Assembly: GCF_054482595.1 (NCBI RefSeq)
Contig: NZ_CM137008.1
Length of the DNA stretch: 64,000 bases
Strand: one strand, 5' to 3'
How positions within the stretch are numbered: the stretch's first letter is position 1; each line of letters opens with the position of its first letter. The notes beneath the pieces are model-generated. The model had not been told where the DNA came from. It was given only the letters and a program-made list of their open reading frames with translations, and did no database searches. The translations under genes were made by a program, and so were the position numbers. Below, piece by piece: positions 137 through 24,609 of the stretch.

Positions 137-1636
137 TTAAGTTCTCCGTGCGATGGGCCTGATTGGGGCTGGTATCTTTTTCTCTTTTGGTTTTTTGATG
201 TCGCGCATCATTTTGGCGAAGCGGCGCATCATGTATGCATAGCGAACAGCTGAGAGAACGTCGTCGTTAAGCTTGACGATTTTCCCGTTTTCATCACGGT
301 GATAGAGGCGGAACTCCTCAAAGAATGGCTCACAGGTGTTGAATACTTTGAAGCGACCGTCGAGCATCATGTCTCGCAATTCAGTGATGCCAGGCTCAAC
401 AGCATTACCGCCATCAGGCCATGTCGCATGCTCCTGCAACATCATAAATCCAGCGTCTGCATACTGCCCTTTGAGCTGCTCACCGCCGCCCTTCTCGTGC
501 TGGTTTCCGTCATGAGGCCATGCTGTTGGCACTTTATGCGCCCATGATTTAACCGCTCCCCATGCCTGAACGGCTGTTTTTTCTTTCGCCTTCCACACGC
601 GTGAAACGTAGATTGTGTCTGCGTCCTTATCCCACCAAATCTGAACCTGCGCCTGCGGGTGATCCCATCCGAAATCCATCCCGCCAATTACGTAGAAGTG
701 ATCAGGACACTCGAACGGCTGACACTTAATCGTCTCTTCCGGTATCTGGAAGATTCGACCACTACCCATCGTAGGAATACCGCGAGCACGCGCCTCTCTC
801 TCATGCTCAGGATAGGATGCGATGATTTGCTCTTTCTGCTCGTCGGTATAGTGCTCAGCGTCATAGATGGTCATGTTGACCACTTTCTGCGACTTGCTGG
901 GATTCTTCAGGAACTTGGTAACAACGTCAGACATCCCCATCAGCGGGGTAAATGTCAGAATTGAGAATTGCCCGTATTTGTTGGTACGGGTAAGACCTTC
1001 GCCATAAATGCTGTATGGTGGCTCTTCGTCAAACCACACGCCGTGGATTGTGTCACCCTGCCAGCGAGCACGGCCTTGCGAGTATGGCTTGAAGTAGCAG
1101 ATTGAAATGCCATCTTCAACGCCATCAGCCGTGTGATGCTTAACCAGAAGATGATCAACAAGGTTCGGAAAGAAAGGAGACTTCTTCCAGCTAATGATGT
1201 CTTCTTTCGGTATGGAACCGTAGCCAGGCTCATCATTCTCTTCGATACGACCGCACAGGATGCGTTGAGTCGTTTTGGTTACAGTCTCGTTTGTCTCTCC
1301 ACCAATCCAGAAGACAACAGGCTCATAGAAACGCTTACCTTTCCACTCACCGCCATATTTACCATCAGCAGGATAGCCTTTTGTGCCCGGATAACGACCG
1401 GTAAGGTGAAACGCGACTTCAGCAGCACCAGTAAATGACTTACCAAGCTGGTTACCAGCCATAAAACATCGCTCTGGATAGTCATGCCCGGCGTCGATGA
1501 ACTCACGCTGCTTGCTGTATGGCGTAAATTCATATAGCAGGTGTGTGTTCCGGTAGTTCTCTTCTTCTTCGAGTAGCTCGAGCAACTCGATTTGCTCTTC
1601 GTCGCTCAGGTTATCAAGAATCGCGTCCAGTTCCAC
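137..1636 (-). CDS. Terminase large subunit (P22 gp2-like)
   Basis: 499 aa ORF; recalled match to P22 TerL; position after terS. Confidence 0.85.
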
Positions 1637-2102
1637 GGTTGAATAGCTCCTTGATACGAGAGCGCCGCTTATCGCGATCTCCCTTATCAGGTGTCACGTC
1701 TTCAACTTGCGACTGCTCTTTGAGGCCCAAATCACGGGCGATGATGTTAGCGTTGAGAAGGTCAGCGGCTGCGCCAGAGAATTTCTGGTCGTAGATGACC
1801 TGTTCTGCTCGCGTAACGACTTCAGATAAATCTTCTCGCAGGCGATATGTGCGCCATGTTTCAAGCGTCACATCAATGAACAGAGTGAGGCCGGTAATGG
1901 TCATCGCTCGCATCTTGGCGATAGGCTCTTGTATTACTTCACCCTGATACGAGAACGCCTTCATCTCCCATAGCGGGTTAGCTTCCACCCACTCGAAGTA
2001 TTCACAACAAGCAGCCCACAGCGCCTCAGGCGATTCGAATTTAGGATTTCGCCCATGACTACTGCGGGCCTCCCAAAATCGGTTGCCCTTTGGTGCTGCC
2101 AT
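1614..2102 (-). CDS. Terminase small subunit (P22 gp3-like)
   Basis: 162 aa ORF immediately upstream of terL, overlapping it. Confidence 0.75.
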
Positions 2103-3226: not shown

Positions 3227-3664
3227 TCATCGAAGGCATTGCGTCCTGATGTATTCCTGCAGGTAGTCAACCTGCGCGGTTATCCTGTCGATTCCACTTC
3301 GGAGACGGTAATAATTGAGTTCAGCATCTGCTGTAAGTCTTGGGCTTTCTCCATTGCCCATGCCGCTGGCTCCGGTCGTTGACTTTGCACAGGTGGCGGC
3401 GACTTGCAGGCGCTTACGACCAGCAGAAACATCAGCACGGAGACTTTCGATAGTCGCGTTAGCATCAGCAAGCTCCTTTGTGTATCTGGCGTCAAGTTCT
3501 GCTACATCACGTTGACGCTTCTGCATGTCAGCGATTGTGGATGTGGCTTTATCACGTTGCTCTTTGTAGGCGATGGCGTTATCACGGTAATGATTAACAG
3601 CCCATGACAGGCAGACGATGATGCAGATAACCAGAGCGGAGATAATCGCGGTTACTCTGCTCAT
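3227..3664 (-). CDS. Rz: Rz i-spanin
   Basis: 145 aa ORF with N-terminal TM segment, directly after endolysin; contains embedded Rz1 frame. Confidence 0.75.
3280..3465 (-). CDS. Rz1: Rz1 o-spanin lipoprotein (embedded in Rz, alternate frame)
   Basis: Embedded ORF with lipobox LVVSAC and proline-rich [14 protein letters not shown] like lambda Rz1; start set at internal Met. Confidence 0.6.
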
Positions 3665-4137
3665 ACCTCAATCTCTCTGACCGTTCCGCCTGCTTCTTTG
3701 AATTTTGCAATCAGGTTGTCAGCCTTATGCTCGAACTGACCATAACCAGCACCCGGCAACGAAGCCCAGATATTGCTGCAACGGTCGATTGCCTGACGGA
3801 TGTCACCGCGATCAATCATCGGTAAAGCGCCACGCTCTTTAATCTGTTGCAATGCCACAGCGTCCTGGCTTTTGGGAGAGAAGTCTTTCAGGCCAAGTTG
3901 CTTGCGGTAGGCATCCCACCAACGTGAAAGAAGCTGGTAACGTCCGGCGGCTGTTGATTTGAGCTTTGGGTTTAGCGTGACACGTTTGCGAGGGTGATCG
4001 GAGTAATCAGTGAATAGCTCTCCGCCAACAATGACGTCATAACCATGATTTCTGGTTTTCTGACGTCCGTTATCAGTTCCCTCCGACCACGCCAGCATAT
4101 CGAGGAACGCCTTACGTTGATTATTGATTTCCACCAT
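3661..4137 (-). CDS. R: Endolysin R (lambda-type lytic transglycosylase)
   Basis: 158 aa; near-identical to recalled lambda R ([35 protein letters not shown]...). Confidence 0.9.
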
Positions 4138-4444: not shown

Positions 4445-4980
4445 GTCTTACCCCCAATAAGGGGATTTGCTCTATTTAATTAGGAATAAGGTCGATTACT
4501 GATAGAACAAATCCAGGCTACTGTGTTTAGTAATCAGATTTGTTCGTGACCGATATGCACGGGCAAAACGGCATGAGGTTGTTAGCGCAGCCTCTTGCCA
4601 CCCGCTTTCACGAAGGTCATGTGTAGAAGGCCGCAGCATAACTATCACTGATGAATTCAGGACAGCTAGTGGCTACGGCTCAGTTTGGGTTGTGGCGGCC
4701 GGAATCGAACCGGCTTCCATCGGTGCGCTGCCGATTGCAGTACGCGCGGCGGTCAGCTACATGACTAGTATTTTCACTATCGCCTATCTGCTAGCTCGCC
4801 ATTGAGCTTCACCACAACGATAAGAGCACTGCGCGGCACCTTTCACCAATTCCGCGAGGTCTGCGGGTTCAATGCTCTTACCTGTTGTGCAAATAAAAAA
4901 GCCACCGTTGCAACTTAAGAGTCACTAACGGCAGCTTATGCGAATAGTGTTGCTCATTTGTTCAATGATGTCAACACGTT

Positions 4981-5469
4981 CTATGCTACATGTTTAATTT
5001 TCTCTACACGTTTCCGGTTTTTAAACGCACTATCCAGAACTGGGTAAATCATAAACAACGAAGCATTGAGGATTTCGTCAACTTCCCGGCGACAGGTTGC
5101 GAGCGATGGTTTTTGAATACGCCCGCCGCCCCGGCATAACATCTTGCGAGGTCTTGCGACACGATGATAGTAAGATGCAATGGCATGCTTGGAAGATCCA
5201 TGAGCGTAGTAGCTGAGGAGGATGCCAAAGGCTTTCTTGTCAATGCACATGACGGAATCGACGACCTGAGAAATCAACATTCCATCATCATCATTACACA
5301 TTGGCCTTGTCATAACTCTTCCCGGCTCTACGCTCTCCATGAACTTCGCTATTACGCTGCTCATGCGCTTTTCCAGGCGACCTGAATAAACCCATGCGCC
5401 CCACAGTTCAAGCCAGCCATTCAGCCACTCGTGCTGTTCTTTGGTGAGGTTTAGTTCTCTTATGCTCAT
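4981..5469 (-). CDS. Q: Late-gene antiterminator Q-like (phage 21 Q-type)
   Basis: 162 aa ORF immediately downstream of ninH and upstream of the lysis cassette; Cys/His-rich; assignment mainly positional. Confidence 0.55.
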   Translation of the reverse strand: MSIRELNLTKEQHEWLNGWLELWGAWVYSGRLEKRMSSVIAKFMESVEPGRVMTRPMCNDDDGMLISQVVDSVMCIDKKAFGILLSYYAHGSSKHAIASYYHRVARPRKMLCRGGGRIQKPSLATCRREVDEILNASLFMIYPVLDSAFKNRKRVEKIKHVA

Positions 5470-6300: not shown

Positions 6301-7022
6301 TAAGCAGCCTCCCCTGTTACTTTCAGCATTCCGTTATCGAGCAGCTTTCTGGTCAGCCACTGTTGACCACGCCCGGTGATTTTTGTGGTAAACGATATCT
6401 GTATTCCGTGATTTGTGTTGACCGCTGTTTCTTTCACTGTGAAATAGCCGCGATCCATATATTCCTGCATTGGCACATTGCGCCGGGAACCTGAAGCAAT
6501 AAGGATTTTGTGATCGCGCATCCATGCAAACAGTTTGTTTGGACCAATACCAACAACCTTTGCATAGTTTCCAATCAAAATTCCGCTGGCCTCGCCAACT
6601 CGATCGGCAAACTCAACTTTAGGTGCGGCAATTGCGAGCTGGTTTTCCAGTTGCATTTTCTGCTCAGCAAGATCAGCAGCAAGGCGCAACGCTTCCGGTA
6701 ACGTTTTGGGGATATTAACCGCAGTTTCTTCAAGCTCTCGCCAACGGTCAACAAGACGAGCGGTGAATTCCGGCGACAACTGGGCTACAACGACAATACT
6801 GTCTCGCTTTCCTTGTTCGCCTTCGAAGACGTAAGCCTCGACACTACGGCGCAGCCCTAAGTTATTGATTTTTTCGAAAACCTGCAATGCAGGAAGTTGA
6901 ATAACTCCAGATTTAGCCAGGCGCTCTATTGATATTTTTACGTTATCTGGACGACTTCCCACCAACTCAGCGATTTCAATGCTTGTCATTTTGATGGCAT
7001 TGCCATTTATTAACTCATTCAT
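6300..7022 (-). CDS. Phage antirepressor, Rha N-terminal domain with Ant-type C-terminal domain
   Basis: 240 aa; N-terminus MTSIEIAELVGSRPDNVKISIERL typical of Rha family. Confidence 0.55.
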   Translation of the reverse strand: MNELINGNAIKMTSIEIAELVGSRPDNVKISIERLAKSGVIQLPALQVFEKINNLGLRRSVEAYVFEGEQGKRDSIVVVAQLSPEFTARLVDRWRELEETAVNIPKTLPEALRLAADLAEQKMQLENQLAIAAPKVEFADRVGEASGILIGNYAKVVGIGPNKLFAWMRDHKILIASGSRRNVPMQEYMDRGYFTVKETAVNTNHGIQISFTTKITGRGQQWLTRKLLDNGMLKVTGEAA

Positions 7023-7701: not shown

Positions 7702-8547
7702 TCATGCCGCATCCTCAAAATTAAATCCAAGCTGACATGAAAATGCTTCACATGATTCAGAACACGAACCTGAATCATACTGTCGCATTGATGTCATTCT
7801 TGAGGCTAACTCATCTCTTGATATATCACTAAACAAGGCAATCAGTGATTTAAGTGTATTATTCCCTCGATACATAACCGGTTCCTTTCCTGTTTTTATT
7901 TCTGTATCAAGGATGTTGATAAATGCATCTGCAAGTTCTGGCTCATCCATGGCTGCCAGCGCAACCTTTTGCATACTTTTTTTTATACAGAAAACACAAT
8001 TACCAAGATGCTCCTGTATGCCAAGATCAAACTTCTGCCCACTCCACCAATCAAGCACATCCTGTTTTTCAAAATCGCTTATATCAGCCAGGTACCGAAA
8101 ACCATTAGCCCTTTTAAGCCTGTTTGGTTCATCTGTGCGAATGCCAAGCCATGTGATGTAATTTCCTTTCCCAAACTTTTCCTGACAATATTTGGTGAAT
8201 GGAACAGACTTCATTCTGTCGGTACAGAACGCACCGCCGATATATGGATGTCCGTATTTATTTAACATCCTTTTCCACGGTATAAGATCTGGACCAATAT
8301 CATTGACACCTATCTCTTCATAACTACTGGCCTTCCCCATTTCTGGATTAGGTATTACACGAAGGCAATGTAAGTCTATTTTCCAGTTACTGACGATATT
8401 TCGGATGAACTCATATGTTTTAGGGTGCTCTGCCCCTGTATCCATGAAAACGTAATGCACGTCTTCACCTGACTGTCGCTTTTGCTCCATTAGCCAGAGC
8501 AAATATGCTGACGTCCTGCCACCTGAGAAACTAACGACATTTACCAT
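7702..8547 (-). CDS. PAPS reductase-like / PP-loop ATP pyrophosphatase family protein (possibly NinC-equivalent)
   Basis: N-terminal [16 protein letters not shown]-loop motif; start set at Met MVNVV so it abuts the methyltransferase gene; NinC equivalence not verified. Confidence 0.5.
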
Positions 8548-9071
8548 GCAGCCCTCCTGACGCCCTGCCCGATCGCCATCAATGCCGCTTTGGATACGGT
8601 AGTAAACATCCGTCGAGGACTGATGAACGGTCGCCAAATCAGCAGCATGGAGCCTTTGCTGTTTCCCTTCTTCTCCAGCCCTGTCGATGGTTCGATAAAA
8701 TTAATCCGTCCATCAGTGATGATGCGAACTTCGTCAATACTCTCCAGAGCCTTGCTGAACCATCCGACAGACATATCCTCTGGCACAAGCATCACTACCG
8801 TCTGTCGCTGTTGTATGCACTGCTCAGCGGCTTTTTCCACCCACGGCCTGATATTGCTGTACGGTGGGTTATTCCAGATTGCACCGTGGCTTATCCACTC
8901 AGAATTTAGCGCGTCGTCGGCCTCAGTTAACCAGTGAGCGCACAGAGCATTTTTGTCGCTCGCTGCCGAATCCAGCCAGAATCCAAACTCAATATCCAGT
9001 GCATCAAAAAGCCAAAGCGGCGTTTGCCAGCAGTCCTTGTCGTGTGCTGGCGTATTTGATTTGATAGTCAT
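8541..9071 (-). CDS. Phage Dam-like DNA N6-adenine methyltransferase
   Basis: WQTPLWLFDAL...NPPYS motifs; start set at MTIKSN overlapping ninB stop. Confidence 0.6.
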   Translation of the reverse strand: MTIKSNTPAHDKDCWQTPLWLFDALDIEFGFWLDSAASDKNALCAHWLTEADDALNSEWISHGAIWNNPPYSNIRPWVEKAAEQCIQQRQTVVMLVPEDMSVGWFSKALESIDEVRIITDGRINFIEPSTGLEKKGNSKGSMLLIWRPFISPRRMFTTVSKAALMAIGQGVRRAAW

Positions 9072-9525: not shown

Positions 9526-9555
9526 AATAAAAAGGCCTGCGATTACCAGCAGGCC
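9526..9555 (-). terminator. Rho-independent terminator (tR2-like, between helicase gene and nin region)
   Basis: GGCCTGC-N8-GCAGGCC hairpin followed by T-run on the minus strand. Confidence 0.4.
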
Positions 9556-9584
9556 TGTTATTAGCTCAGTGATGTAGATGGTCA

Positions 9585-12083: not shown

Positions 12084-12362
12084 TCAGGCCTCGAAGAATT
12101 CGCCGTTCTTCGGGGCTTTTTCTTTTGTCAGCATTCTGGCTACTTTCTTAGCCAGTTCCGCCAACTCCTCGTCTTCAACACCCCATTCAAGAACAGCCAG
12201 AAGCATTCCCATTTTTGGGATGAAGCTGTCTTTCCATCGCGAAATTTGCGATTCATTAATCCCTAATGCATCAGCAACCTTTCGCTGACCACGTACAGCA
12301 ATTCGATTCAGGATGTTGCTTGTAATTGCATTCGCTTTCTTGCGAGTACTTGTAAGTTGCAT
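12084..12362 (-). CDS. cII: CII-like transcriptional activator
   Basis: From Met MQLTSTRKK; strong similarity to recalled lambda CII (GTEKTAEAVGVDKSQISRWKRDWIPKFSMLLAVLEWGV). Confidence 0.7.
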   Translation of the reverse strand: MQLTSTRKKANAITSNILNRIAVRGQRKVADALGINESQISRWKDSFIPKMGMLLAVLEWGVEDEELAELAKKVARMLTKEKAPKNGEFFEA

Positions 12363-12430
12363 ATGTAAGTATTTCCTTAACAAATAAGAAGTTATGCGCA
12401 TCAACTTATGCGCGTTGTATTCCCGCATTT

Positions 12431-12474
12431 CGGCGGGAATGAGGACCATGACTGTTAAAGAGCGGTGTTACTTA
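12431..12474 (-). promoter_or_regulatory. nutR-like site (boxA CGCTCTTTAAC plus boxB hairpin)
   Basis: Minus-strand boxA-like sequence and TCCCGC-N6-GCGGGA hairpin just downstream of cro; same hairpin recurs upstream of N. Confidence 0.45.
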
Positions 12475-12717
12475 TGCTGCCTGATTCGGTTTTGGAAACA
12501 GGTGTGGCAAATCGGGGCGAATTTCGTAAGCCTTGATCTGCCCTCCAGTGGCGTTAACGATGGCGGTAACTTTCTCTGGAGAGACCAACCCGCCTTTCAG
12601 CCATTTGTGTACTGCTGGCTGCGTTACACCACACTTGTCGGCAAGACGCTTTTGGCTACCGACAATTTTCAAGGCTCGTTGAATTACTAAATTCATGAGC
12701 ATACCTCTTGTGGTCAT
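12472..12717 (-). CDS. cro: Cro-like repressor (HTH)
   Basis: 81 aa HTH ORF divergent from cI across the operator region; true start probably an internal Met. Confidence 0.6.
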   Translation of the reverse strand: MTTRGMLMNLVIQRALKIVGSQKRLADKCGVTQPAVHKWLKGGLVSPEKVTAIVNATGGQIKAYEIRPDLPHLFPKPNQAA

Positions 12718-12732
12718 TACTTATAACCAAAG

Positions 12733-12795
12733 ATAACTCAAGTTATAAAAATTAGCAATAACCTTTGTTATTTTACTTTGGATAACCGTAGTTAT
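12733..12795. promoter_or_regulatory. OR operator region: three ATAAC-N4-GTTAT palindromes
   Basis: Sites at 12733-12746, 12758-12771, 12782-12795, centres ~24-25 bp apart, between cro and cI. Confidence 0.5.
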
Positions 12796-12807
12796 AGATT
12801 TGTGGGT

Positions 12808-13515
12808 ATGAAAACATTCGCAGAAAGACTAAATGCAGCCATGAGCTCAGCAGGGGTATCACAATCACAGCTTGCTGACATGGTTGGAATATCTCAGCCA
12901 GCCATACAGAAGATGTCGTCCGGTAAAACAAACGGATCTCGCAAGATGGTTGAATTAGCCAATGCTTTAAAAGTGCGTCCTGAATGGCTTAGTTCTGGTA
13001 TTGGTGAAATGAGGGATGGTGCACATGAAGAACCATCCAATGTCCGTGAGTCATCTTTAAAAGCTGTGGTATGGGAAGACATTAAAAGAAACGATGACGA
13101 GTTTGTTGCGTTGCCTCTTCTTAACGTTTCGCTTTCAGCTGGAAGCGGTAGCTGCGAGCTAGAGGAATCATCGGAGTTCTCTTTGGTTTTCAGAAAGCAC
13201 TATCTGAAAAAGATGGGAGTATCTGAAAGATCAGCCAAGCTAGTTAGGGTTGTAGGGCAAAGCATGGAACCAACGCTTCACGATGGCGATGTTGTTGGTG
13301 TTAACACGCAAGATACCACAATCAGAGATGGTAAAACCTACGCTATTTGCCAGTCTGATTTGTTACGAGTAAAAACATTAATCGCCACCCCTACATCGGT
13401 GATAATCAGATCAATAAATCGCGAAGAGTACCCGGATGAAGTAATGGATAGAGATGAATTTCATAAAACCGTAAGGATTATTGGCAGAGTATTCTGGTCG
13501 TCTCATAGTTGGTAA
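12808..13515 (+). CDS. cI: CI-like repressor (HTH plus S24/LexA-like autocleavage domain)
   Basis: N-terminal HTH, C-terminal GQSMEPT...DGD motif; start set at first ATG of the TTG-initiated ORF. Confidence 0.8.
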   Translation: MKTFAERLNAAMSSAGVSQSQLADMVGISQPAIQKMSSGKTNGSRKMVELANALKVRPEWLSSGIGEMRDGAHEEPSNVRESSLKAVVWEDIKRNDDEFVALPLLNVSLSAGSGSCELEESSEFSLVFRKHYLKKMGVSERSAKLVRVVGQSMEPTLHDGDVVGVNTQDTTIRDGKTYAICQSDLLRVKTLIATPTSVIIRSINREEYPDEVMDRDEFHKTVRIIGRVFWSSHSW

Positions 13516-13757
13516 CCGATAATCAGAAGAAGACTTACGGAAGTGCGGAGGGATAATGGAATTTCTGATAGTTTTTGTTGTTGTTTTGGTCATCATTCTT
13601 TTTGTTTTGCTAAGCATTAGCAAAAAGCTATCTCAAATGATTGAACATAGCTCTAATCGCGCAAAATAGACTGGCCCCCTGAATCTCCAGACAACCAATA
13701 TCACTTATTTAAGTGATAGTCTTAATACTAGTTTTTAGACTAGTCATTGGAGAGCAG

Positions 13758-14123
13758 ATGATTGATGTCTTAGGACCGGAGAAACGCAGACGGCGTACTA
13801 CACAGGAAAAGATCGCTATTGTTCAGCAGAGTTTTGAACCGGGAATGACAGTCTCCCTTGTTGCCCGGCAACACGGTGTGGCAGCCAGCCAGTTATTTCT
13901 CTGGCGCAAGCAATACCAGGAGGGAAGTCTTACTGCTGTGGCCGCAGGAGAACAGGTCGTTCCTGCCTCTGAACTTGCTGCCGCCATGAAGCAGATTAAA
14001 GAACTCCAGCGCCTGCTCGGCAAAAAAACGATGGAAAATGAACTCCTTAAAGAAGCCGTTGAATACGGGCGTGCAAAAAAGTGGATAGCGCACGCGCCCT
14101 TATTGCCCGGGGATGGGGAGTAA
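13758..14123 (+). CDS. insC: IS2 transposase OrfA (InsC)
   Basis: 121 aa [26 protein letters not shown]..., matches IS2 InsC. Confidence 0.9.
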
Positions 14124-14986
14124 GCTTAGTCAGCCGTTGTCTCCGGGTGTCGCGTGCGCAGTTGCACGTCATTCTCAGACGAACCGATGACTGGAAAGAT
14201 GGTCGCCGCAGCCGTCACTCAGATGATACGGATGTGCTTCTCCGTATACACCATGTTATCGGAGAGCTGCCCACATATGGTTATCGTCGGGTATGGGCGC
14301 TGCTTCGCAGACAGGCCGAACTTGATGGTATGCCTGCGATCAATGCCAAACGTATTTACCGGATCATGCGCCAGAATGCGCTGTTGCTTGAGCGAAAACC
14401 CGCTGTACCGCCATCGAAACGGGCACATACCGGCAGAGTGGCTGTGAAAGAAAGTAATCAGCGATGGTGCTCTGACGGGTTCGAGTTCCGCTGTGATAAC
14501 GGAGAAAAACTGCGAGTCACGTTCGCGCTGGACTGCTGTGACCGTGAGGCACTGCACTGGGCGGTCACTACGGGCGGCTTCAACAGTGAAACAGTACAGG
14601 ACGTCATGCTGGGAGCGGTGGAACGCCGTTTCGGCAACGAGCTTCCGGCGTCTCCAGTAGAGTGGCTGACGGATAATGGTTCATGCTACCGGGCTAATGA
14701 AACACGGCAGTTTGCCCGGATGTTGGGGCTTGAACCGAAGAACACGGCGGTGCGGAGTCCGGAGAGTAACGGCATAGCAGAGAGCTTCGTGAAAACGATA
14801 AAGCGTGACTACATCAGTGTCATGCCCAAACCAGACGGGTTAACGGCAGCAAAGAACCTTGCAGAGGCATTCGAGCATTATAACGAATGGCATCCGCATA
14901 GTGCACTGGGTTATCGCTCGCCACGGGAATATCTACGGCAGCAAGCCAGTAATGGGTTAAGTGATAACAGGTGTCTGGAAATATAG
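14081..14986 (+). CDS. insD: IS2 transposase OrfB (InsD)
   Basis: 301 aa ORF overlapping insC as in IS2. Confidence 0.9.
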
Positions 14987-15193
14987 GGGCAAATCCACAA
15001 AAGAAGAAGAGCATCTAATTGATATAAAAGAGATTCTATCTGATATAAAAATCACATTAGATGAAATAAAATACACAACAGATCTAATTGAACAGTATAA
15101 AATACCAACCCCAAACGAGAGAAAAGCAATAGATCAATATCGTATTGACTTAGAAATCGACGAAATGCTAAGCAAAAGAAAAGACTAAAAACA

Positions 15194-15220
15194 CCCGGCC
15201 TCAGCGCCGGGTTTTCTTTT
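15194..15220 (+). terminator. Rho-independent terminator after the rex-locus gene
   Basis: CCCGGC-loop-GCCGGG hairpin followed by TTTTCTTTT. Confidence 0.5.
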
Positions 15221-15385
15221 CCTGCCGTTCACCACCCAATCACCCATCATCATCATAGACAAGCATCAAGCCAAAGGTAACACCTTCACCCCGCACGCAA
15301 GCCCTCAAACACCAATCAATCAGCAACATTTACAAAAATAAAATACATTTGTTATCCATCACTTATAACTTATTTACCACAAAAT

Positions 15386-15424
15386 ATAAGTTAGGTTATT
15401 GACCACACCTATAACCTAAGTTAT
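15386..15424. promoter_or_regulatory. OL operator region: two ATAAC/G-N4-GTTAT sites flanking a putative pL -35 TTGACC
   Basis: Sites at 15386-15399 and 15411-15424, same half-sites as OR. Confidence 0.45.
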
Positions 15425-15472
15425 CTTTAAGCCATCAGCAGGACGCTGGTAGCCAAACGGAACAGATTGGCA

Positions 15473-15515
15473 GGCTCTTTAACATTGATGGGATTGTCCC
15501 GCCGAAATGCGGGAA
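15473..15515 (+). promoter_or_regulatory. nutL-like site (boxA GCTCTTTAACA plus boxB hairpin)
   Basis: boxA-like sequence at 15473-15484 and TCCCGC-N6-GCGGGA hairpin at 15497-15515 upstream of N. Confidence 0.45.
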
Positions 15516-15708
15516 CCAAAGAGTAGTTGGCTTTGGGATTGGATGAATGAGCAGGCTGATGCTCGACCAATGTATAAACAGCGCTCATGGCAAGCAGTAA
15601 CCAATCTGCGCCTCAAGACAGCGTCACTGGTAGTGCGGGCGCTCTAACCAGTAAGCCGGAATTCAGCACCGGCCATCCAATCACCAAAGTCAATCATCGG
15701 AGGTCAAC

Positions 15709-16008
15709 ATGACAGTAGTCATTACATATCTGGCTGACGATAACGCCAGAAATCGCCGCAGAGCACGCAGACAGACTCAACGTGAACAGGCAATGCAAGA
15801 GCAGCGACTGGCGCGAAAAATTGCGCTAAAGCTCTCTGGTTGCGTCAGAGCAGATAAAGCAGCATCACTCGGAAGCCTTCGCTGCAAGAAGGCAGAAGAA
15901 GTCGAGCGTAAACAGAACCGTATTTACTACCGCAAGCCACGCAGTGAAATGGGTGTGACTTGTGTTGGTCGCCAGAAAATGAAATTAGGCAGCAAACCAC
16001 TTATTTGA
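15709..16008 (+). CDS. N: Antiterminator N-like
   Basis: 99 aa; arginine-rich N-terminus NARNRRRARRQ; C-terminus matches recalled lambda N (R.YY.KP....G.TC.GRQK.K..S.PLI). Confidence 0.7.
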   Translation: MTVVITYLADDNARNRRRARRQTQREQAMQEQRLARKIALKLSGCVRADKAASLGSLRCKKAEEVERKQNRIYYRKPRSEMGVTCVGRQKMKLGSKPLI

Positions 16009-16439: not shown

Positions 16440-16490
16440 TTTCAGGCCGAATATTCGGCCTTTATTTTTAGCATAAACAACAGAGGTGAA

Positions 16491-16826: not shown

Positions 16827-16961
16827 GCACTGTGTATTCATTCCAACGAGTGAATACACGGAGCAATGTCGCTCGTAACTAAACAGGAGCCGACTTGTTC
16901 TGATTGTTGGAAATCTTCTTTGCCCTCCAGTGTGAGGGCAATTTTTTTTGATGGAGGATAT

Positions 16962-23342: not shown

Positions 23343-23561
23343 ATGTACTTGACACTTCAGGAGTGGAACGCACGCCAGCGACGCCCAAGAAGCCTTGAAA
23401 CAGTTCGTCGATGGGTACGCGAGTGCAGGATATTCCCTCCTCCGGTTAAGGATGGAAGAGAGTATCTGTTCCACGAATCAGCGGTAAAGGTTGACTTAAA
23501 TCGACCAGTAACAGGTAGCCTTTTGAAGAGGATCAGAAATGGGAAGAAGGCGAAGTCATGA
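23343..23561 (+). CDS. xis: Excisionase (lambda Xis)
   Basis: 72 aa MYLTLQEWNARQRRPRSLETVRRWVRE..., matches recalled lambda Xis. Confidence 0.9.
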   Translation: MYLTLQEWNARQRRPRSLETVRRWVRECRIFPPPVKDGREYLFHESAVKVDLNRPVTGSLLKRIRNGKKAKS

Positions 23562-24609
23562 GCGCCGGGATTTACCCCCTAACCTTTATATAAGAAACAA
23601 TGGATATTACTGCTACAGGGACCCAAGGACGGGTAAAGAGTTTGGATTAGGCAGAGACAGGCGAATCGCAATCACTGAAGCCATACAGGCCAACATTGAG
23701 TTATTTTCAGGACACAAACACAAGCCTCTGACAGCGAGAATCAACAGTGATAATTCCGTTACGTTACATTCATGGCTTGATCGCTACGAAAAAATCCTGG
23801 CCAGCAGAGGAATCAAGCAGAAGACACTCATAAATTACATGAGCAAAATTAAAGCAATACGGGGGGGGCTGCCTGATGCTCCACTTGAAGACATCACCAC
23901 AAAAGAAATTGCGGCAATGCTCAATGGATACATAGACGAGGGCAAGGCGGCGTCAGCCAAGTTAATCAGATCAACACTGAGCGATGCATTCCGAGAGGCA
24001 ATAGCTGAAGGCCATATAACAACAAACCCTGTCGCTGCCACTCGCGCAGCAAAATCAGAGGTAAGGAGATCAAGACTTACGGCTGACGAATACCTGAAAA
24101 TTTATCAAGCAGCAGAATCATCACCATGTTGGCTCAGACTTGCAATGGAACTGGCTGTTGTTACCGGGCAACGAGTTGGTGATTTATGCGAAATGAAGTG
24201 GTCTGATATCGTAGATGGATATCTTTATGTCGAGCAAAGCAAAACAGGCGTAAAAATTGCCATCCCAACAACATTGCATGTTGATGCTCTCGGGATATCA
24301 ATGAAGGAAACACTCGATAAATGCAAAGAGATTCTTGGCGGAGAAACCATAATTGCATCTACTCGTCGTGAACCGCTTTCATCCGGCACAGTATCAAGGT
24401 ATTTTATGCGCGCACGAAAAGCATCAGGTCTTTCCTTCGAAGGGGATCCGCCTACCTTTCACGAGTTGCGCAGTTTGTCTGCAAGACTCTATGAGAAGCA
24501 GATAAGCGATAAGTTTGCTCAACATCTTCTCGGGCATAAGTCGGACACCATGGCATCACAGTATCGTGATGACAGAGGCAGGGAGTGGGACAAAATTGAA
24601 ATCAAATAA
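23539..24609 (+). CDS. int: Tyrosine integrase (lambda Int)
   Basis: 356 aa; matches recalled lambda Int; overlaps xis as in lambda. Confidence 0.95.
   Translation: MGRRRSHERRDLPPNLYIRNNGYYCYRDPRTGKEFGLGRDRRIAITEAIQANIELFSGHKHKPLTARINSDNSVTLHSWLDRYEKILASRGIKQKTLINYMSKIKAIRGGLPDAPLEDITTKEIAAMLNGYIDEGKAASAKLIRSTLSDAFREAIAEGHITTNPVAATRAAKSEVRRSRLTADEYLKIYQAAESSPCWLRLAMELAVVTGQRVGDLCEMKWSDIVDGYLYVEQSKTGVKIAIPTTLHVDALGISMKETLDKCKEILGGETIIASTRREPLSSGTVSRYFMRARKASGLSFEGDPPTFHELRSLSARLYEKQISDKFAQHLLGHKSDTMASQYRDDRGREWDKIEIK

Follow-up and report, generated by a model that had tools for sequence, protein, structure and literature searches.

Probable nutR and nutL antitermination sites of the HK620 type in a lambdoid prophage

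Organization of the early region

The DNA analysed here is a 64,000-nucleotide stretch of contig NZ_CM137008.1 (assembly GCF_054482595.1), referred to below as the window, and it contains a cI-type repressor gene flanked by divergent PR/OR and PL/OL (Table 1). The gene order on the minus strand is PR-cro-nutR-cII, with nutR in the orientation of the operon, and the order on the plus strand is PL-nutL-N, with nutL 194 nt upstream of the N start codon. A sequence-only reading had described this arrangement as the one expected for N-dependent antitermination and as support for the N and cro assignments. Family matches now back both gene orders, and the two genes in question match phrog_271 (N) and the HTH/Cro family (cro).

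The operator motif ATAACnnnnGTTAT occurs six times in the window, with five of the six matches clustered at OR and OL; none of 100 shuffled windows reached six. An automatic promoter scan listed PL and did not list PR. An IS2 element lies between cI and PL and leaves the nut sites untouched; among the complete E. coli genomes searched at the IS2 junction, none had the same insertion.

Table 1. Features assigned in the early region (window coordinates)
Feature	Position	Strand	Remarks
Q	4984-5469	-	PR operon, past the tR2-like site
Terminator-like site, predicted (tR2-like)	9533-9556	-	PR operon, past DnaB-like helicase gene, upstream of nin region and Q
cII-like activator gene	12084-12362	-	92 aa; first gene past nutR; Pfam Phage_CII 1.8e-42, profile positions 1-91 of 91
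Second hairpin, GCGCAU-AAGUUG-AUGCGC plus U-rich stretch	12396-12413	-	Between nutR and cII; region labelled tR1 in HK620; putative terminator
nutR boxB hairpin	12421-12438	-	UCCCGC-CGAAAU-GCGGGA; 8 bp when stem extended to 12419-12440; invariant in relatives
nutR spacer GTCATGGTCCTCAT	12439-12452	-	14 nt; 4/14 columns polymorphic among relatives
nutR boxA CGCTCTTTAACA	12453-12464	-	Exact match; 8 nt past cro stop codon; 11/11 to rrn core; within HK620-annotated nutR
cro-like repressor gene	12472-12696	-	74 aa; HTH; Pfam YdaS_toxin/HTH_3/P22_Cro, phrog_35
PR, TTGCTA-17 nt-TATCTT	12730-12758	-	Identified by eye as the counterpart of PL, sharing its -10 hexamer and operator context; overlaps OR1
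OR operators, three ATAACnnnnGTTAT sites	12733-12746, 12758-12771, 12782-12795 (span 12733-12795)	.	Motif search
cI-type repressor gene	12808-13515	+	Peptidase_S24 2.4e-17 and HTH_3; phrog_4 1.6e-52
tIMM equivalent, terminator of cI (immunity) transcript	15193-15212	+	Predicted, upstream of PL; HK620 has tIMM annotated in the corresponding position
PL	TTGACC 15399-15404, 17 nt, TATCTT 15422-15427 (region 15386-15427)	+	Promoter scan
OL operators	15386-15399, 15411-15424		Within PL region; ATAACnnnnGTTAT motif
nutL boxA GGCTCTTTAACA	15473-15484	+	About 40 nt 3' of predicted PL start; 11/11 to rrn core
nutL spacer TTGATGGGATTG	15485-15496	+	12 nt; 2/12 columns polymorphic
nutL boxB hairpin	15497-15514	+	Same sequence as nutR boxB; equals 3' end of HK620 'nutL' feature
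N antiterminator gene	15709-16008	+	99 aa; phrog_271 'anti-termination protein N-like' 1.6e-36
tL1-like intrinsic-terminator-like site	16444-16461	+	First in PL operon past N; predicted
Second terminator-like site in PL operon	16920-16941	+	Predicted

The paired boxB hairpins

The 18-mer TCCCGCCGAAATGCGGGA occurs exactly twice in the window, once at each nut site and on opposite strands, and no further copy with at most two mismatches was found there. No match appeared in any of 100 shuffled windows, and the chance expectation is 0. That the same hairpin lies 3' of cro (minus strand) and 5' of N (plus strand), as the sequence-only reading had it, is thus borne out by an exact 18-mer at both places. 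The interval it gave began at 12431, which falls within the nutR boxB, the whole nutR being 12421-12464.

Folded alone, the 18-mer forms a 6 bp stem with the loop CGAAAU (-9.7 kcal/mol, z = -2.9). RNA folding of both nut sites, a check proposed in the earlier reading, kept the boxB hairpin in the minimum-free-energy and centroid structures of the nutR and nutL contexts alike. In the 53-nt nutL context the total fold energy was no better than that of shuffles (z = -0.4), although the hairpin still formed. In the hexaloop C-GAAA-U we see a probable GNRA tetraloop with a C.U mismatch as its closing pair, much as C-UAAC-C is closed by C.C in phage 21. The second hairpin, beyond nutR, forms in the fold of a 101-nt context (z = -3.8 for that context) and is polymorphic among relatives.

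Other identities of the hairpin were considered and ruled out: an intrinsic terminator, as no U-tract follows it, and a repressor operator, the operators being ATAACnnnnGTTAT. The put RNAs of HK022-type phages are two large stem-loops of about 70 nt, 3' of PL and PR, in phages with no N gene. An RNA of this kind was also ruled out, since an N gene is present, each site consists only of the 18-nt hairpin and boxA, and Rfam was empty: its covariance models gave 0 matches between 11000 and 17500 at E <= 1. Rfam contains no nut model and so gives no independent RNA-family call on the nut sites.

boxA elements and spacers

A boxA, GCTCTTTAACA, lies 12-14 nt 5' of each boxB copy, and the shared GCTCTTTAAC is exact at 12454-12463 (-) and 15474-15483 (+). 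The spacers of nutR and nutL are unrelated sequences. Against the core of the rrn boxA UGCUCUUUAACAA, a sequence documented in PMC2724277, the match is 11/11 positions; by phage, the corresponding scores are 11/11 for phage 21, 10/11 for P22, 9/11 for lambda and 6-7/11 for H-19B. The earlier observation that this boxA stands nearer the rrn consensus than that of lambda is therefore correct, but judging from these sequences the rrn-like boxA is real without being special.

Over the 11 nt of GCUCUUUAACA the element is identical to the E. coli rrn boxA, and the NusB-NusE ligand is presumably the same. The rrn system differs by having no N and no boxB-N interaction, by using SuhB and S4, and by mainly countering Rho (see PMC4807359).

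The N protein and its arm

The product of the gene downstream of nutL has an arginine-rich arm at about aa 11-30 (DNARNRRRARRQTQREQ...), a central block (aa 34-61) common to phage 21 and HK620, and a C-terminus (aa 62-99) that shows homology to lambda N 74-110. The protein is 97% identical to the N of phage 21 over aa 34-99 and 97-98% identical to HK630/mEp213 N over aa 1-64; within the latter segment HK620 N differs by two substitutions, one of them T/A at aa 23. The protein is a mosaic, with an HK620-type arginine-rich arm joined to a phage-21-type C-terminus. Homologues in CUS-3, vB_EcoP-611R6 and elsewhere carry the annotation N, and the protein matches chain N of PDB 6GOV, the antitermination complex with lambda N, at E = 2.6e-4. 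Pfam PF25694 N_peptide scored 19.6 bits (E = 0.0014) against a cut-off of 27.9 bits, and an NCBIfam scan of N gave no match. The assignment as N therefore draws on phrog_271, on the identity to the N proteins of phage 21, HK620 and CUS-3, and on 6GOV.

The arm aligns gap-free with the boxB-binding arms of lambda, P22, phage 21 and H-19B, sharing the pattern x-A/S-x-x-R-R/Y-x-x-R-R/L. This comparison is an ungapped anchored alignment; MAFFT misplaced the short P22, H-19B and lambda arms.

Comparison with known phages

Comparison with the nut sites of lambda, P22 and phage 21, which the sequence-only reading had also suggested, gave the same architecture throughout, with boxB loops that differ. 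The closest likeness is to coliphage HK620 (GenBank AF335538), whose record carries the labels "putative nutL" and "nutR": boxA, spacer and boxB of nutL, and boxA, spacer, boxB, next hairpin and cII start on the nutR side, are base-for-base the same as in the window. The same nut sites are present in HK630, CUS-3, IME10, HF4s, N7 and phi296. On this comparison the sites are already known, being those annotated in HK620, and ordinary. HK620 differs in having a P22-type N C-terminus (…YAAGYRKSKQLTAR), where that of the window is of the phage-21/lambda type, and in its cI/cro immunity region, the closest to that of the window being from the Stx1a-converting phage Stx1a_10051 (99.5%). The nutL-N leader of the window is also about 80 nt longer, and the IS2 between cI and PL is a further difference.

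Phage 21 is identical in the PL leader and boxA-L and has the same nutR boxA core. Its boxB likewise has a 6-7 bp stem and a hexaloop with pyrimidine ends around a 4-nt GNRA-like core, and its arm shares A-[KR]-x-R-x-[KR]-A-R-R. The loop, however, is CUAACC rather than CGAAAU, the stem sequences differ, and the arm past ARR is unrelated (AELIAERR in phage 21, QTQREQAM here). In phage 21 the stems of nutL and nutR are not the same, while the two in the window are identical; between the window type and both phage 21 sites the stems differ yet remain paired. PDB 1NYB is the NMR structure of the phage 21 boxB-N peptide complex. The hexaloop architecture of phage 21 has been described (PMC12550061).

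Lambda is alike in the positions of the sites in the PL and PR operons, in the order boxA-spacer-boxB, in the arginine-rich arm and in the homologous N C-terminus. Its boxA (CGCUCUUA) matches rrn at 9/11, its boxB has a 5 bp stem with a GAAAA or GAAGA pentaloop, and its spacer is shorter than the gap of 12-14 nt that follows the boxA 12-mer here. In the ungapped alignment, residue 18 (Trp) of the 107-aa lambda N, which stacks on the boxB loop, aligns with Ala28 of the window protein. P22 gene 24 and H-19B N belong to the same nut architecture, with an rrn-like boxA in P22 (10/11) and poor or absent boxA matches in H-19B. The N-terminus MTV(V)ITY of the window N resembles P22 gp24; the boxB of these phages has a GACAA pentaloop and their arms are GNAKTRRHERRR and GNSRSRRRERLK.

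HK620, HF4s, N7 and phi296 share the arm and, at both sites, the boxB found here, and have two other N C-termini between them. Phage 21 provides a natural swap: it agrees with the window in the PL leader, in boxA-L and over N aa 34-99, but the interval that begins at the spacer/boxB and ends at N codon 33 is different. The same arm thus goes with the same boxB across three C-terminus types, and in phage 21 both are different, so that arm and boxB travel together; arm type, as far as these sequences go, co-varies with boxB type. Taken together, the natural mosaics of phage 21, HK620, N7 and this prophage delimit a compact specificity cassette that begins at boxB, ends at N codon 33 and is swapped whole.

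Conservation among related loci

Related loci were drawn from IMG/VR as 80 of 564 tblastn-confirmed relatives, all with an N at least 96% identical to that of the window. Both boxB copies were present in the same layout in 75 of the 80 loci with this N, and the immunity DNA between the two copies differs among them (1.1-3.1 kb). The nutR boxA was unchanged across 74 related loci and the nutL boxA 11-mer in 77, with G, T or A at the preceding base. Polymorphic columns numbered 0/58 in boxA and boxB, compared with 26/125 in spacers and flanks (Fisher p = 2e-5). This invariance may be due partly to shared ancestry, as the relatives are close, and we regard it as supportive, not decisive. Relatives whose N is at least 96% identical offer no deep covariation for this boxB type; in its place, the type was compared with those of phage 21, P22, H-19B and lambda. 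Mosaic junctions sit at the boxA and boxB edges, and one locus (L008) has a nutR carrying the nutL spacer.

Proposed mechanism and alternatives

Based on these observations, we suggest that the two sites are very probably the nutR and nutL of a lambdoid (HK620/CUS-3/P22-like) prophage and canonical N/Nus antitermination sites. From PR and PL alike, the nascent transcript would carry boxA (GCUCUUUAACA) and, after a further 12-14 nt, the boxB hairpin. On the lambda model, host NusB-NusE(S10) would bind to boxA; boxB would be bound by the N-terminal arginine-rich arm of N, encoded just downstream of nutL, with a specificity of the HK620 type. The central region of N would recruit NusA and its C-terminus would contact RNA polymerase. 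The looped RNA-protein complex is expected to render polymerase resistant to the tR1 region and to the sites at 9556-9533, 16444-61 and 16920-41, so that O, the helicase, Q and the genes of the PL operon could be expressed. We infer N-boxB binding, the use of Nus factors and the readthrough itself by analogy.

Of the other explanations, the one that fares best, though we consider it very unlikely, is that the rrn-type boxA alone drives N-independent Nus-factor antitermination (NusB/E/A/G, SuhB), the hairpin being dispensable or merely structural. The 11/11 match of GCUCUUUAACA to the rrn sequence, boxA core and first spacer bases together, is consistent with this idea, as is the tighter binding of NusB and NusA-SKK by the rrn boxA than by the lambda boxA (PMC2724277, PMC2800207). 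Against it, the hairpin varies no more than boxA does and accompanies this N arm in every case, phage 21 combines the same boxA with another hairpin and another arm to match, and N is retained with its RNAP-binding C-terminus intact.

Slightly less probable again is a hairpin that is not an N-binding site and serves instead, for example, in RNA processing (by RNase III or otherwise), in the loading or blocking of Rho, or as a translational operator for N and cII. In lambda, nutR overlaps the tR1 rut sites and the nutL leader controls N translation (lambda annotation; PMC3526286), and here a second hairpin follows each boxB; such roles, however, add to boxB function in lambda and are not alternatives to it. 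An identical 18-mer in two unrelated leaders, tied to the arm and not to the variable cII or N leader, fits a trans-acting, arm-specific ligand. The least probable explanation denies the hairpin any function as RNA: recombination or gene conversion between the two leaders would have left the second copy behind as a neutral trace, or the palindrome would be recognised in the DNA by a binding protein. It could appeal to the gene conversion between nut sites seen in L008 and to the mosaic junctions at the boxA and boxB edges, but is opposed by motifs that are invariant while spacers and flanks differ, by an asymmetric loop and a boxA-then-boxB order that tracks the direction of transcription at both sites, by repressor operators with a different, well-defined motif, and by the stems that stay paired between this type and phage 21.

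Returning to nut sites recognized by N, we lean slightly towards a further proposal: the HK620-type arm (…DNARNRRRARRQ(A/T)QREQ…) and the C.U-closed GAAA boxB may form a separate, biochemically uncharacterised specificity class, orthogonal to the pairs of lambda, P22/H-19B and phage 21, with the perfect rrn boxA perhaps lowering the need of this phage group for Nus factors. No experiment on this boxB type or on this N was found in the literature searched.

The nut pair bears out N, cro, cII, PL and PR as assigned in the prophage and indicates that its early antitermination circuit is intact despite the IS2 in the immunity region; beyond correct annotation its importance is little. The boxB/arm type is widespread and could serve as another orthogonal peptide-RNA tether.

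Paired nut sites in a lambdoid immunity region

Here we report that the prophage carries matching nutR and nutL sites, as the sequence-only reading had claimed from an identical boxB hairpin and an rrn-like boxA at each. Both elements hold up: the boxB 18-mer TCCCGCCGAAATGCGGGA has exactly two copies in the 64-kb window (no others at up to 2 mismatches, and no occurrence in 100 dinucleotide-preserving shuffles), each with an exact boxA core GCTCTTTAAC on its 5' side. The coordinates of that reading were also right except for the start, 12431, which lies inside the nutR hairpin. Both sites share two blocks, an 11-mer and a 19-mer made up of boxB and one A; the spacers between the blocks (14 nt at nutR, 12 nt at nutL) are unrelated in sequence. 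RNA folding, which had been proposed as a check, yields a hairpin from TCCCGCCGAAATGCGGGA with a 6-bp stem and a 6-nt loop (-9.7 kcal/mol, z = -2.9); it persists when each site is folded in its longer context, in MFE and centroid structures alike, with the nutR stem lengthening to 8 bp. A spurious ORF (15507-15647) begins at an ATG within nutL boxB.

The surrounding genes form a textbook lambdoid immunity region in which lambda's "leftward" is the plus strand, and the earlier N and cro assignments are backed by the phrog_271 match of N, the HTH of the cro-like protein and gene order. The operator motif ATAACnnnnGTTAT has six matches in the window, a total reached in 0/100 shuffles, and five of the six cluster at OR/OL. 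From the predicted PL and PR starts it is ~40 nt to boxA-L and ~260 nt to boxA-R, and the corresponding distances in lambda are similar. Past the terminator-like sites, one side holds Q, lysis genes and terminase, the other integrase.

Features of the nut sites, immunity region and prophage
Feature	Position	Strand	Details
Terminase	137-2102	-	
Lysis genes	3230-4137	-	
Q	4984-5469	-	
Ant-like anti-repressor	6303-7022	-	
PAPS-reductase-like gene	7705-8637	-	nin region
Terminator-like hairpin with U-tract	9556-9533	-	downstream of helicase gene
O-like and DnaB-like replication genes			after cII
cII	12084-12362	-	92 aa; Pfam Phage_CII 1.8e-42, full profile
Second hairpin	12396-12413	-	GCGCAU-AAGUUG-AUGCGC, then U-rich tract; 7 nt past nutR boxB
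nutR	boxB 12421-12438, boxA core 12454-12463	-	CGCTCTTTAACA-GTCATGGTCCTCAT-TCCCGCCGAAATGCGGGA (transcribed strand)
cro-like HTH protein gene	12472-12696	-	ends 8 nt ahead of boxA-R
PR	12758-12730	-	TTGCTA-17-TATCTT; exact parallel of PL, placed by eye
OR	12733-12795		three ATAACnnnnGTTAT matches
cI-type repressor	12808-13515	+	S24 peptidase domain and HTH
IS2	13667-14997		complete, 1331 bp; NCBIfam IS2 TnpA 2.9e-83, TnpB 3.7e-214
OL	15386-15424		two ATAACnnnnGTTAT matches
PL	15399-15427	+	TTGACC-17-TATCTT
nutL	boxA core 15474-15483, boxB 15497-15514	+	GGCTCTTTAACA-TTGATGGGATTG-TCCCGCCGAAATGCGGGA (transcribed strand)
N	15709-16008	+	99 aa; phrog_271 'anti-termination protein N-like' 1.6e-36
Terminator-like hairpin with U-tract	16444-16461	+	downstream of N
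Terminator-like hairpin with U-tract	16920-16941	+	downstream of N
Integrase	23539-24606	+	

By alignment, the feature is already known, the same as the sites annotated in HK620 (AF335538) as 'nutL; putative N-utilization leftward' and 'nutR; putative N-utilization rightward', followed by 'tR1' where the window has its second nutR hairpin. The HK620 nutL feature ends (3') exactly on the window's boxB, and both HK620 nut sites are identical to those of the window, the nutR-to-cII segment included; the exact feature is therefore on record, as 'putative' only. HK630 has an annotated boxA; CUS-3, HF4s, N7 and phi296 have both nut sites unannotated. No experimental study of the HK620-type boxB was found in the searchable literature.

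At 12363-12449 (minus strand), an ATG in the nutR spacer (GTCATGG) is in frame with cII, and the resulting 121-aa ORF passes through boxB into the cII gene; several GenBank records (CUS-3, HF4s, N7, phi296) start cII at that ATG (366-384 bp). This is an annotation pitfall; the 92-aa form matches Phage_CII end to end and is also HK620's curated form.

Linkage of boxB to the N arm

Alignments show that N is a three-part mosaic, with an arginine-rich arm (~aa 11-30) and central block of HK620/HK630/mEp213 type (aa 1-64) and a C-terminus of phage 21/lambda type. Over residues 1-64 the protein is 97-98% identical to N of HK630 and mEp213, and translated HK620 N shares this N-terminal sequence. Over residues 34-99 it is 97% identical to N of phage 21, the two types overlapping at aa 34-64. 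The C-terminus (aa 62-99) has its homologue in residues 74-110 of lambda N in antitermination-complex structure 6GOV. The PL leader and boxA-L of phage 21 are those of the window, but the two differ from the spacer/boxB through N codon 33, identity returning at LARKIALK. The phage 21 boxB reads UCUCAAC-CUAACC-GUUGAGA (nutL) or UCACCU-CUAACC-GGGUGA (nutR), and the N arm of this phage is GTAKSRYKARRAELIAERR. HK620 and phi296, with a P22-type C-terminus, and HF4s and N7, with a third, N7-type one, carry the arm DNARNRRRARRQAQREQ and the window's boxB at both nut sites. The boxB type thus tracks the arm and not the remaining N, which is what an arm that binds boxB would predict. In ungapped comparison the window's arm is in register with those of lambda (MDAQTRRRERR), P22 (GNAKTRRHERR), H-19B (GNSRSRRRERL) and phage 21, all known boxB-binding arms.

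Nut types, from the annotated records of each phage
Phage	boxA match to rrn core	boxB loop
lambda	9/11	GAAAA / GAAGA
P22	10/11	GACAA
H-19B	6-7/11	GACAA
phage 21	11/11	CUAACC
window / HK620	11/11	CGAAAU

The boxA had been described as nearer to rrn than lambda's, and so it is (11/11 vs 9/11); among the records compared, an rrn-like boxA is the common state in non-lambda lambdoids. In rrn, boxA reads UGCUCUUUA with ACAA after it, and in lambda CGCUCUUA; Nus factors are bound more tightly by the rrn form (PMC2724277, PMC2800207). In the complex of phage 21 (PDB 1NYB), a C.C pair flanks the GNRA-like fold of the hexaloop C-UAAC-C (PMC12550061); by analogy, the window's C-GAAA-U may form a true GNRA tetraloop with a C.U mismatch closing it.

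Conservation among relatives

Scanning IMG/VR with N gave 80 loci (N at least 96% identical), and 75 carry the exact boxB twice in the same divergent layout, 1.1-3.1 kb apart, and therefore with different immunity modules between the nut sites. Four exceptions are cut off at a contig end; the fifth, locus L041, has at ~4600-5000 the same N and Shine-Dalgarno sequence with unrelated sequence directly 5', and no nutL/boxB within 5 kb, and probably represents a prophage that has been rearranged or has decayed. Homology among variants ends directly before boxA-R on one side and 2 nt past boxB-L on the other, which places the nut sites at module edges. Among these closely related sequences, 0/58 columns of boxA and boxB are polymorphic vs 26/125 of the spacer and flank columns (Fisher p = 2e-5). 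The second nutR hairpin carries substitutions among relatives, some pair-breaking, and is therefore less constrained than boxB. Locus L008 (2804-2852, minus strand) has the nutL spacer TTGATGGGATTG between boxA and boxB in an otherwise nutR context, which suggests gene conversion or recombination between its two nut sites.

The leader from boxB-L to N (15515-15708) is mosaic, with at least 5 alternative sequences among relatives beginning 2-30 nt past boxB; HK620 lacks ~80 nt of it. A hairpin, CCAAAG-N9-CUUUGG, directly follows boxB-L in most variants; one possibility is an N translation or processing signal.

Proposed mechanism

The analysis establishes the anatomy and fold of the sites, their conservation, the linkage of arm and boxB, and the homologies of N; binding and terminator readthrough are inferred. 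The nut sites very probably serve canonical N/Nus processive antitermination, an interpretation already proposed from their layout and supported by gene order, promoters and HK620 identity. NusB-NusE would assemble on boxA, N's arm would bind boxB, its central region (common to phage 21) NusA, and its lambda-like C-terminus RNA polymerase; the modified polymerase would then pass the tR1 region, the terminator after the helicase gene and the tL terminators to reach Q and the PL-operon genes. Three alternatives are together improbable: rrn-style antitermination through boxA alone, a different RNA function of the hairpin, and a reading as neutral repeats or as a palindrome acting at the DNA level. 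Against them stand the arm-specific linkage of boxB, its asymmetry oriented with transcription and an operator motif distinct from it. The widespread HK620-type arm/boxB pair may represent a distinct, biochemically uncharacterised specificity class.

IS2 insertion and prophage layout

The IS2, flanked by a CAAAA target-site duplication (13662-13666 and 14998-15002), interrupts a small gene that follows cI (13556-13666 joined to 15003-15188, ~99 aa, hydrophobic N-terminus); the insertion precedes the immunity terminator and PL and leaves nutL untouched. The junction is absent from the complete RefSeq E. coli genomes searched. The closest phage record, LC744178, lacks IS2, its matched segments being 1336 bp closer, the combined length of the 1331-bp IS2 and the 5-bp duplication. 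In the immunity region the nearest match is a Stx1a-converting phage; the interval from Q to the lysis genes nonetheless has no space for stx genes. The prophage layout spans 137-24606, with virion genes beyond the window start.
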